Source: a virus (Duplodnaviria > Heunggongvirae > Uroviricota > Caudoviricetes). From it: DNA of 21,018 bases. The notes beneath the pieces were generated by a model. The model saw only the letters and a program-made list of their open reading frames with translations, was not told the DNA's origin and made no database searches. This document shows positions 17,827-21,018 of this stretch, piece by piece. Numbering within the stretch: position 1 is the first letter of the stretch; every line of letters starts with the position of its first letter. The position numbers and the translations under genes were made by a program. Location of the stretch: IMG/VR virus record IMGVR_UViG_2740892421_000008, positions 1 to 21,018 of that record; one strand, given 5' to 3'.

Positions 17827-19743
17827 TTATCCTCCACTCAGTGCAGCCGCGATTTCTTCCAGACTCATCTCATCGTCGTCCTGCTCATCTCTTCTGGCAC
17901 GGGCCAGTGCTTCAAGATCCAGCTGCCACCGCTGAACTGAAATACGCAGGGCAGCATAGGCATATACCAGGCAGTCGAGGGCTTCGTTGCGTCGCCCTTT
18001 TTTATCCCACAGCAGTTTCACCCTGCCATTAACCACCTTCTCCACCAGCTCTTCCGCCACGATCTGACGCGCCTCTTCTTCCGAAAAAATGTCGGGGTTA
18101 TCCGGAAAACGGACGGTATACGGGGCGGCTTCACTGACAGAGACCACTGGCAGGGCAAAACGGGCGTACAGCATTTCCTTGACGGTATCGGAGCCCACCT
18201 CACACAAAAACACACCACGCTGGTTGCGCTTTTTGGGCATGGTGATCACCGGCTTGCCGTACACCGATGCCCCTTTTATGGGAAGCACAAAAAAAGTGCC
18301 GTGTTTCCTGGAACGCTGATACACAATGTCCTGGTCGATACCACCGGTATCCCAGCAGACACGGGAAATGGAAATTTCAGTACCGTCAGCATGACGATAT
18401 TTTTTCCGGATCACCGTATCAACACGTTTAAGGGTGTCCTCGTCTTCCGGTCGCCCCATGATAATTTGCTTATCAATCAGAAAGGCTTCTTCGCCGGGAG
18501 CCCAGCCCCAGACATAAATTTCATAGCGATCTTTCTGGGAGTCGATCCCGGCGGTCAGGTAAACCACCCGCAGGGGAACCTGCGCACCATAGTGGCAGAC
18601 TTTTTCCAGCAACAACTCAAAGCTCAGTTTTTCTGCCACGGCCTCTTCATAGGGCTCCCCGAGCGTGGTGTTAATAAACGTCTTAACACCGTTCGGATCC
18701 TTCAGCGCATCCAGCCAGTCATAAACAATCTGTACCCAGGTGGTGAACGGACTGTACGCTGTCCACACGTGGTACGTGATTGAGCGCGGTGGCGGCATCT
18801 CCTCATCACCGGCGCTGTAAAATGCCAGGCCGTCGCGCGTCCACATCCCGGTATTGTCACAAATCCAGCGCCCGTCGGTCTGGTCAAGTTCCGACTGCCG
18901 GATCACACAGCCATTATGTTCACACAGGTAATACACCGTTTCCGGTTTACCCTTCTCCCATTTCAGGCCAAACGGCGTCGCATCATCGCCAAACTTCAGA
19001 TACTGGGCCTCCCCGCAATGAGGGCAAGGGACATAAAACCGCATGAAATGCGCAGATTCATTCGCGGCTTTCTCAATCTGGCAGGAGCCTTTAATTTTCG
19101 GCGTTGAGCCGCGTATGGATTTAGGCCATACCGAGCCTTCGATACGTTTATCGCCAAGCAGCGTCGGCGAGCCTTCTTTTTCCACATCCGGTTCAAACGA
19201 GGAGAGTTCGTCATAGCAGACCACATCCACAGATTTTTCACGGTAGTTTTTAGCTGCGGCACCGCCCAGGCACCAGAACCCCACGCCGGAGGAAAAACGC
19301 TTCAGGGTAAGTGTATTATCGCGGTGCTTTCTTCCGTACCATGGAGCCAGCTCCAGCAATGCAGGGACATCCCTGATCGTTGGCTCAACATGAGATTTCA
19401 TGAAATCTTCTGCCGCAGAATCTGTTGGCTGAAAAAGCAGACTGTTACGGGATTTATGCTCAATAAAATAAGCCTCCACCCCCAACAGCATTTTGGTGTA
19501 ACCAACGCGCGCCGATTTAATCAGATTAACGGTGCGGATCCGGTCATTTCCCATGCTGTTCATAATGGCAACCTGAAACGGCAGGGTTTCCCATTGTCCG
19601 GGAGTGTATGAAGATTCTTTCGGCAGATAATAATGTTGATCAGCCCACTGAACCGTCGTCAGTGGAACCGGAATATTGAGAGATAAAAGCCCTGTAGCTA
19701 TCGCACCGGCTGCATTAGCTGCCTTCTGTGCGTCTGAAATCAT
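17827..19743 (-). CDS. A: Terminase large subunit, lambda gpA-like
   Basis: Collinear with lambda gpA: …[25 protein letters not shown]…[14 protein letters not shown]…FIEHK…[16 protein letters not shown]…[14 protein letters not shown]…[14 protein letters not shown]…[25 protein letters not shown]…[18 protein letters not shown]. The track start (19785) adds 14 residues; I prefer ATG 19743..19741, which gives lambda-like spacing to the WAD motif and a 29-nt overlap with the small subunit. Confidence 0.93.
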
Positions 19744-20263
19744 CAATCCACCTGCCCACGTTTTCACCGGCTTTAGCTGCAACATTGGAGGCTTTCGCGA
19801 TTTCAGTTTTCACCACATCAAGGTGTGATGGTGAAATATCCGGATATTTACGCTGTAATGTCAGCGGCACACGTACAAGTATCCCCGAAATCTCCTGTGC
19901 CACACGTTGCAGAATGAAGGTAAACAATTCCGTTTCCAGCACCAGCCCTTCTTCACGGGCATTTTTCAGCTCCTGTGCGTCAGCCTGTGCTTTGGTGAGC
20001 CGGTAGCGTTCATAGTCAATGGTGCCGGGTTGTAAATCTGATTCTGCAGCCGCACGCAAATCTTCCAGTTCTTTGCGGAGCTTTTCGTTTTCGATATCTT
20101 TTTCCCGCTGCGCATACCACTCAATGGCTTCTGCAGTATTGAACATGGCTTCGATACCTTTGCCTCCCCCCGACAAAACTCTCAGCCCCTGACTTTGCCA
20201 GCCAGTGATTGTTCTGACATCGCACTCAAAAATTTCCGCCAGTTTCTTTTTGTTAACCTTCAC
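19715..20263 (-). CDS. nu1: Terminase small subunit, lambda Nu1-like
   Basis: 182 aa; (M)[11 protein letters not shown]…[20 protein letters not shown]…[48 protein letters not shown]… parallels lambda Nu1 (MEVNKKQLADIF…GGGKG…[47 protein letters not shown]…). The start codon is GTG (20263..20261) with GAGG about 10 nt upstream. Sits directly downstream of the cos repeats. Confidence 0.9.
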
Positions 20264-20460
20264 GGCACATATTCCTCACAAAAAGAAGAAAGGATCTCAA
20301 AACGCTTTTTTCAGCGAAAAATCACCGCTGCCAGATCCTTTCTTTTTTTTAAGAAAACCCTATTAAACAACAGGTTAGCCAGAAGAAGAACGGATCTGCT
20401 TTTTCCCTGAAAATTTTCATAAATAGCGCGTTTTTGCGCGTCCCCAGACCCTCGGTGTTT
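20264..20460 (-). other. cos site: predicted cosN (about 20436..20458) plus cosB with three Nu1-binding-type repeats (R3-like 20381..20399, inverted R2-like 20332..20349, R1-like 20281..20298)
   Basis: On the minus strand the region reads gggtctggggacgcgcaaaaacgCGCTATTTATGAAAATTTTCagggaaaaagcagatcCGTTCTTCTTCtg…, collinear with the lambda left end GGGCGGCGACCTCGCGGGTTTTCGCTATTTATGAAAATTTTCCGG…CGTTTCCGTTCTTCTTCG. The motif AGAAGAA(A/C)GGATC occurs twice in direct and once in inverted orientation, with 100 bp between the outer copies, as for lambda R3/R2/R1. Confidence 0.75.
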
Positions 20461-20593
20461 CAGGTTCTGGAAAGGACCCATAAAAAAGAGAACAATTATC
20501 ATTGCATTGAAGACATCAATCTTGTTGTATTGCCACAAATCAGGGCCATTAAACAAACATGTCAAAGAATAACAATTCAAAGTGACCTGCCAA

Positions 20594-20839
20594 TTAATAG
20601 GCCTGATAACTAATTAATGATATTTCCGTTTTCCCGCTAGAATATGTTCTATAATGCAGGATAACTTTTGTATTTTCATTCAAAGCATTAATTATTGATT
20701 GTTTTGATATGTCTGGAAATTGGTTTTGAATATCAGCAACCAATGTTTCAAGATAAAGATCAACCTCTCTGCGCGGTGGTACACAACATAAATTGTATAA
20801 ATAGTTATTAACTATATTCGTAACATTTCTCATGCCCAC
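20594..20839 (-). CDS. Hypothetical small protein (about 79-81 aa) in the AT-rich segment to the right of cos
   Basis: Only ORF of 60 aa or more in the low-GC stretch; co-directional with the late genes. Track start is GTG 20839 (GAGG 4 nt upstream); alternative ATG at 20833. No family recognised; AT-rich codon usage unlike the structural genes. Confidence 0.3.
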   Translation of the reverse strand: MGMRNVTNIVNNYLYNLCCVPPRREVDLYLETLVADIQNQFPDISKQSIINALNENTKVILHYRTYSSGKTEISLISYQAY

Positions 20840-20940
20840 AATGCCTCATGATAAAAAATATTAACCTGTATTCACTCCTGATATAATATCATAAAAAAAA
20901 TCCAACTTATCCTTTCCATCAAAGTGGTAATGACTCCAAC

Positions 20941-21018
20941 TTATTGATAGTGTTTTATGTTCAGATAATGCCCGATGACTTTGTCATGCAGCTCCACCGA
21001 TTTTGAGAACGACAGCGA
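20941..21018 (-). CDS. 3' end of an unidentified gene entering from beyond the right window edge
   Basis: One minus-strand frame is open from the window edge and stops at TAA 20943..20941 (…SLSFSKSVELHDKVIGHYLNIKHYQ*); the other two minus frames stop within 20 codons of the edge. Only 26 codons are visible. Confidence 0.3.
   Translation of the reverse strand, partial: SLSFSKSVELHDKVIGHYLNIKHYQ

Follow-up and report, generated by a model that had tools for sequence, protein, structure and literature searches.

What does a Dam methylation site do in the packaging site of a lambdoid prophage when every terminase-binding repeat carries one? The question is raised by a stretch of 21,018 nucleotides from a Caudoviricetes genome (IMG/VR record IMGVR_UViG_2740892421_000008, positions 1 to 21,018; here called the window). 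Its 197-bp segment 20264-20460, next to a Nu1-like gene, had been read from the letters as a lambda-type cos site with a GATC in each of three R elements. The original prediction went on to suggest that binding of the small terminase (TerS), and so the initiation of packaging, could depend on Dam. We take the question in three steps: what the segment is, whether its GATC sites set it apart from related cos sites, and how probable a role of methylation is.

Results

Anatomy of the segment

The minus strand of 20264..20460 aligns with lambda cos without a gap from cosN through R3, and the same holds for the alignments with phi80, phage 21 and Gifsy-1 (Table 1). The two blocks that the segment was said to share with lambda, CGCTATTTATGAAAATTTTC and CGTTCTTCTTC, are both present, and with the gapless alignment they bear out the claimed collinearity with the lambda left end. 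The lambda R1/R2/R3 layout was also recovered: the repeats lie on strands -, + and -, upstream of a Phage_Nu1-type TerS gene and a gpA-type TerL gene. Measured from the I2 anchor, R3, R2 and R1 have offsets of 24, 82 and 124 in the window, 24, 83 and 126 in lambda and 24, 81 and 124 in phage 21. Across lambda, phi80, phage 21 and Gifsy-1 the window's offsets agree to within 2 bp, with R3 always at +24. The outer two repeats start 100 bp apart, as had been stated; we rejected this spacing as a special feature, the corresponding distance being 102 bp in lambda, 101 in phi80, 100 in phage 21 and 101 in Gifsy-1.

Table 1. Positions of the cos elements and neighboring features in the window.
Feature	Positions	Strand	Sequence	Remarks
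TerL, gpA family	17827..19743	-		Pfam GpA_ATPase and GpA_nuclease
TerS, Nu1 family	19715..20263	-		GTG start; Pfam Phage_Nu1, E = 3e-85
R1	20283..20298	-	GAGATCCTTTCTTCTT	GATC at 20293-20296
Repeat 12-mer	20286-20297	-	AGATCCKTTCTT	
R2, inverted	20332..20347	+	CAGATCCTTTCTTTTT	GATC at 20334-20337
Repeat 12-mer	20333-20344	+	AGATCCKTTCTT	
I1-like IHF site	20365..20377	+	AAACAACAGGTTA	One mismatch to WATCAANNNNTTR
R3	20383..20398	-	CAGATCCGTTCTTCTT	GATC at 20393-20396, lambda-numbering bp 55-58
Repeat 12-mer	20386-20397	-	AGATCCKTTCTT	
I2-like AT-rich spacer between cosN and cosB	20401..20433	-	Includes TATTTATGAAAATTTTC	Gapless to lambda bp 18-50
Predicted cosN cohesive-end 12-mer	20439..20450	-	GGTCTGGGGACG	Placed by homology, uncertain by a few nt
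cosQ heptamer, packaging termination signal	20473..20479	-	GGGTCCT	Identical to annotated phage 21 cosQ
ORF of 81 aa	20594-20839	-		In AT-rich DNA between the IS1 end and cos
IS1 terminal sequence	20917-21018			Start approximate

The other elements of a cos site were found in the corresponding places. The cosQ heptamer, invariant in 43 class relatives (see below), lies 29 bp from the homology-inferred nick, compared with 30 bp in lambda. In I2, an element defined in PMC4856287, the block TATTTATGAAAATTTT is identical in the window and lambda, and TTATGAAAATTTT is invariant across the 43 relatives. The I1-like site aligns with the annotated I1 of phage 21 and with lambda's TAACTTAATGTTT; the IHF motif taken alone occurs at chance level, the window containing 15 matches where 14.5 would be expected. 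The TerS gene begins at lambda-numbering bp 188, compared with bp 191 in lambda and bp 189 in phage 21. Base 1 of cosN, placed at 20450 by gapless alignment with the left ends of lambda, phage 21 and phi80, puts the predicted 12-mer inside 20436..20458, the approximate interval in which the unit-length boundary had been expected, and by homology that expectation appears sound.

Each cosB GATC lies in a copy of one repeat

All three repeats that had been described with a GATC at 20293, 20334 and 20393 were found, and these are the only GATC sites in 20200-20620. Three sites in the 197-bp segment compare with about 0.7-0.8 expected, while the window as a whole shows no enrichment (86 observed, 79 expected). 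Each of the three sits inside one copy of AGATCC(G/T)TTCTT. A search of the 21-kb window for the 12-mer AGATCCKTTCTT, with up to one mismatch allowed, returned three matches, all of them exact (Table 1); shuffled versions of the window gave a mean of 0.14 matches, and three were reached in none of 100 shuffles. The longer form in which the repeat was originally given, AGAAGAA(A/C)GGATC, stands for the two outer copies, which match it exactly, and has to be corrected for the inverted copy, which carries one mismatch (AAAAGAAAGGATC). Because all three GATC sites are copies of one binding motif, they are not independent and amount to a single observation.

A mosaic terminase next to cos

On the minus strand, the right end of the window reads as a lambda-like late operon of TerS, TerL, a W-like gene and the portal gene. 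The TerS gene lies directly downstream of cos and overlaps the TerL gene. Among solved structures, the TerS DNA-binding domain is best matched by that of Gifsy-1 (7LXS); the other domain structures are those of phage 21 (7LWR) and lambda (7LW0 and 1J9I). Overall, TerS is 88% identical to phage 21 gp1, yet it has a recognition helix of the Gifsy-1 type (DVRTVTAWQSQ in Gifsy-1, DPRTIERWQSQ in phage 21, SIRTIQNWQEQ in lambda). By sequence comparison, TerS is thus a mosaic: its DNA-binding domain is of the Gifsy-1 type, and its C-terminal (TerL-binding) part is of the phage 21 type.

The likely start of TerL is MISDAQK at 19743, as judged from alignments to phage 21 gp2 and the Gifsy-1 TerL; the mechanical ORF extends to 19785 and adds 14 codons upstream. 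Compared with phage 21 gp2, the N-terminal (ATPase) half of TerL is 91-99% identical and the nuclease half 68-77%. The divergence of the nuclease half parallels that of cosN, described below, and is consistent with a different nicking site.

The recognition helix predicts the repeat type

The original prediction had noted that the R elements of the window, unlike those of lambda, contain GATC. This difference is real, since the R elements of lambda contain none, and neither do those of phi80 and phage 21. We asked how the difference is distributed among related cos sites. Loci were collected with TerS as the seed and without GATC as a criterion, which gave 160 from IMG/VR and 11 from reference genomes; after identical sequences were collapsed and the window, lambda, phi80, phage 21, Gifsy-1 and other reference phages were added, 79 distinct cos sites were available. 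In these 79 sites the type of the TerS recognition helix predicts the type of the repeat without exception (Table 2). A protein-seeded scan with one genome per species returned lambda/phi80-type TerS loci only, and these served as a GATC-free control, not as relatives of the class.

Table 2. Recognition classes among the 79 distinct cos sites.
Class	Recognition helix	Sites	Repeat core	GATC in repeats
Class G	DVRT(I/V)T(A/G/S)WQSQ	44	AGATCC(G/T)TTC	R3 44/44, R2 43/44, R1 44/44
Phage 21 type	DPRTIERWQ(S/T)Q	18	CATGTCGG	None
Lambda/phi80 type	S(V/I)RTIQNWQ(D/E)Q	12	CGTTTCC	None in core
PhiR5_1 type (fourth class)	DIRTIDRWQTQ	5	CATGTC	None

The window falls in class G with both its TerS helix and its R core, which is AGATCC(G/T)TTC in R3, R2 and R1. 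The 44 sites of this class come from E. coli prophages and Salmonella Gifsy-1 and form three sublineages: a window-like E. coli group, a second E. coli group and Gifsy-1. At a query coverage of at least 80%, the second E. coli sublineage is found in 223 of 5426 complete genomes and the window-like one in 14. A GATC is kept in 131 of the 132 class-G repeats. The one locus that has lost it, in R2 (GGAACT for GGATCT; L026, IMGVR_UViG_3300014682_000024), is also the only class-G locus with Ser at helix position 21 (DVRTITSWQSQ).

Every repeat of the window therefore has a GATC because the GATC lies in the recognition core of the class, at lambda-numbering bp 55-58, and this numbering is robust because the alignment is gapless. 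Judged from these comparisons, the GATC-bearing repeat is a conserved recognition element of the known Gifsy-1 class, for which the cosB order R3-I1-R2-R1 had already been given (PMC9026076), and the window adds to that class an E. coli member with a mosaic TerS. Of the original claim, then, the presence of GATC in the repeats stands; it is not peculiar to the window, GATC being the consensus of a class with 44 distinct sites. When 43 class-G cos regions are aligned, the spacers between the repeats diverge, and the invariant islands are the R cores, I2 and cosQ. Within the core, all positions are near-invariant: there are two variants in the 132 repeats, one inside the GATC and one outside it, and these repeats give no signal either way on whether the GATC is conserved beyond the neighboring core positions.

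Two loci from IMG/VR (L030 and L032) combine the phage 21-type helix DPRTIERWQSQ with a wing of the window's type, and their repeats are of the phage 21 type. This combination suggests recombination inside the TerS domain, with the helix rather than the wing setting the repeat type.

The predicted cosN of the window belongs to a variant family

The cosN 12-mer is identical to lambda's GGGCGGCGACCT at only 6 of 12 positions. Its predicted changes include positions 3 and 5, in the half on the left that is normally conserved, while its position and the flank on the right (CGC) are kept. We found it to be one of a family of variants that reads ACCGRG, then GGnnnnnnnACG, then CGCAAAAACG (also written ACCGRG, then GG.......ACG, then CGCAAAAACG). 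The inner 7 nt of this family are hypervariable among prophages that are otherwise nearly identical; examples are the window's own 12-mer and GGACGGCAGACG, GGTACGCGTACG, GGTCATGGGACG, GGTCATAGCACG and GGGCGGCAGACG. Besides the window, the variant was seen in loci L019-L032, L051, L071 and L105. It co-occurs with class-G TerS, with phage 21-type TerS and, in vB_EcoM-705R4 (ON470624), with an unrelated TerS.

The spacer between cosQ and cosN holds a conserved GATC of its own (CCGG(T/C)GATCCG) in lambda, phage 21 and many relatives with a canonical cosN (L006, the lambda right end; L007, the phage 21 right end; L035-L084), and it is absent from the variant cos of the window.

A lab-propagated phage with mapped ends and either a class-G cosB or the window's cosN type was not found in the phage collection. 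Lambda_4C10, ev017 and IdasGreatGrand are of the phage 21 type with a canonical cosN. The ev017 record (NC_049948.1; L103:1-100) starts with a poly-T run followed by CAAGCAGAAGACGGCATACGAGAT...AGATGTGTATAAGAGACAG, which we take to be Illumina/Nextera adapter sequence, and only then continues with the phage left end; the start of this public record looks like an assembly artefact.

Surroundings of cos

The nearest nucleotide matches to the window's cos in the phage collection are a partial E. coli prophage record, SerU-LTIIb (93%), and Gifsy-1 (74%). About 470 bp upstream of cosN, the window runs into the terminal sequence of an IS1, which is 96-98% identical to IS1A/IS1B copies on thousands of plasmids. 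E. coli STEC309 (NZ_CP041435.1; L099) has a cos that is 100% identical; homology to this otherwise identical prophage stops at 20928, and its TerL is annotated as frameshifted, while that of the window is intact. With an IS1 this close, the prophage may have been rearranged.

In STEC309, a lysis cassette lies ahead of cos, and the lysis genes in turn have an AB5-toxin pair just upstream, made up of a scabin-related ADP-ribosyltransferase and a subtilase-family AB5 binding subunit. SerU-LTIIb carries its LT-IIb toxin genes at the equivalent place.

Discussion

What the segment is

The segment is very probably the cos of a lambdoid prophage, with a Gifsy-1-class cosB, a matching TerS DNA-binding domain and a GATC within the recognition core, as judged from its sequence and that of its relatives. 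The predicted order is cosQ, cosN, the I2 spacer and cosB (R3, the I1 IHF site, inverted R2 and R1), with the terminase genes directly downstream. If the site works as in lambda, IHF would bend the DNA between R3 and R2 so that a TerS dimer can dock on both, R1 would serve as an accessory site, and the docked TerS would anchor TerL to nick the two strands of cosN at staggered positions, about 50 bp from R3. The anatomy, the homology, the helix-repeat match and the conservation are observed; TerS binding and the nick positions are inferred.

There are two other ways to read the segment. It could be a decayed relic, the cos of a defective prophage that no longer serves packaging and whose divergent cosN reflects drift. 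The adjoining IS1, the frameshifted TerL of the STEC309 copy and a cosN 12-mer unlike lambda's would all fit such decay, as would the distribution of this cos in the phage collection, where among 50,697 records it occurs only in Gifsy-1 and the partial SerU-LTIIb record and in no lab-propagated phage. Against decay, the TerS, TerL, W and portal ORFs of the window are intact, and purifying selection is indicated by the R cores, I2 and cosQ, which stay invariant over many independent loci between varying spacers. The drift explanation of cosN is also at odds with the variant family, whose flanks are precisely conserved over many loci and TerS types, so that it looks like a functional alternative cosN. 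We therefore hold a relic to be quite unlikely. Still harder to credit is that the repeats arose by chance or serve another purpose, for example as a Dam-regulated promoter or operator of the late genes. In its favor, the region is AT-rich and has several short inverted repeats; yet the repeat count is far above chance, the repeats match position for position the R elements that experiments have defined in lambda and phage 21, and their type changes with that of the TerS recognition helix. We rejected a reading as promoter or terminator, since no promoter- or terminator-like site is predicted inside cosB or anywhere else in 20264-20460.

Does methylation of the GATC matter?

Given a working cos of the Gifsy-1 class, the methylation state of the GATC could alter the affinity of TerS, so that recognition of cos would depend on whether the site is unmethylated, hemimethylated or fully methylated. 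Such gating would time packaging, or would tell new concatemers from the fully methylated chromosomal prophage, in the manner of P1 pac. The position of the adenines speaks for some effect. TerS contacts bp 55-63 (PMC9026076), and recognition is determined by R3 bp 56, 58 and 59 together with TerS residues 20 and 24 (PMC4669245). Both GATC adenines lie inside the contacted stretch, one at lambda-numbering bp 56, a base pair critical for recognition (PMC9026076, PMC4669245), and the other opposite bp 57. Because a methylatable adenine coincides with this critical base pair, an effect of N6-methylation on TerS binding is plausible, in either direction. The residues at helix positions 20-21 of class G are small (T followed by G, A or S), compared with QN in lambda and ER in phage 21, and could, as a speculation, make room for the N6-methyl groups. 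The near-complete retention of GATC in class-G repeats is in line with gating, and so is the Dam+ status of E. coli and Salmonella, the only hosts known for the class. There is also a precedent in P1, where pac contains seven TGATC(A/G) hexamers and its cleavage depends on adenine methylation (PMC10028697).

Several observations weaken the case. As copies of one motif, the three GATC sites count once. The TC of the GATC is common to all classes (TTTC, TGTC, GATC), so that two base pairs make the Dam site; a GATC would be expected by chance in about 1 in 16 recognition classes, and at least four classes exist. The other core positions are as conserved as the GATC, which is not singled out. In the annotation of Gifsy-1 (record 1-26000 and 26424-48491) no methylase is listed, and the window covers late genes only; without an annotated methylase of the phage, host Dam would be the sole source of methylation. 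According to a 2025 paper, ST64B was alone among Salmonella prophages in its response to Dam-mediated regulation, a statement on induction, not on packaging (PMC12455584). On balance, Dam-gated packaging seems doubtful to us, and a regulatory role of cosB GATC methylation more generally is improbable to the same degree.

What can be said with more assurance is that a Dam site in the recognition core is a class-wide fact that goes without mention in the searchable literature; nor did we find there any work that links cosB to GATC or Dam, or Dam to terminase, or that describes undermethylated GATC in Gifsy-1. In Dam+ hosts the GATCs of the R elements should carry methyl groups on both strands, one at bp 56 and the other opposite bp 57. 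A class-G TerS would then have to cope with every methylation state that occurs in replicating phage DNA. Gifsy-1, for one, is presumably an active phage in Dam+ Salmonella.

If gating were true, cos recognition in the Gifsy-1 class would be tied to replication and methylation state, and the class would be a counterpart to P1 pac and the first cos system with epigenetic gating. The fully methylated cos of an unexcised prophage might then be spared while fresh concatemers are cut; a preference the other way round is just as possible. Should methylation matter, packaging initiation would be linked to host Dam activity and replication state in a group of prophages that carry virulence genes, namely Gifsy-1 and the toxin-carrying E. 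coli prophages SerU-LTIIb and those of the STEC309 type. Should it be irrelevant, the class would offer a winged helix-turn-helix that tolerates N6-methyladenine in its site.

Comparison with known systems

As a cos site, that of the window is ordinary. Lambda and phage 21 have the same cos architecture and distances, followed as in the window by Nu1- and gpA-family terminase genes; in these two phages cosQ, cosN, I2 and cosB are experimentally defined, while those of the window are assigned by homology. The R core, however, is AGATCC in the window, GTTTCC in lambda and TGTCGG in phage 21, and the recognition helix of the window differs from those of both phages at residues 14-16 and 20-21, and from that of lambda also at residue 24.

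Gifsy-1 (NC_010392) is closer. It has the same R core, with repeats CAGATCCGTTCTTCTT, AAGAAAGGATCTG and CAGATCCTTTC, and shares with the window the R3-I1-R2-R1 layout (with a putative I1 in the window), the spacing, cosQ and the recognition-helix type. The two differ in their cosN 12-mers (GGGCGGCAGCGT in Gifsy-1, GGTCTGGGGACG in the window) and in the spacers between the repeats, which have diverged; the stretch from cosN to the TerS gene start is 74% identical. They differ also in the C-terminal part of TerS, which in the window is of the phage 21 type, in one extra GATC that Gifsy-1 carries 7 bp before R1, and in their hosts, Salmonella for Gifsy-1 and E. coli for the window.

The likeness to P1 is of another kind. 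P1 encodes its own Dam. It packages by the headful from pac with an unrelated pacase, unlike the lambda-type cos of the window. What the two have in common is several Dam sites within the elements bound by the packaging enzyme (PMC10028697). Dependence on methylation is demonstrated for P1; for the cos of the window it is a possibility.
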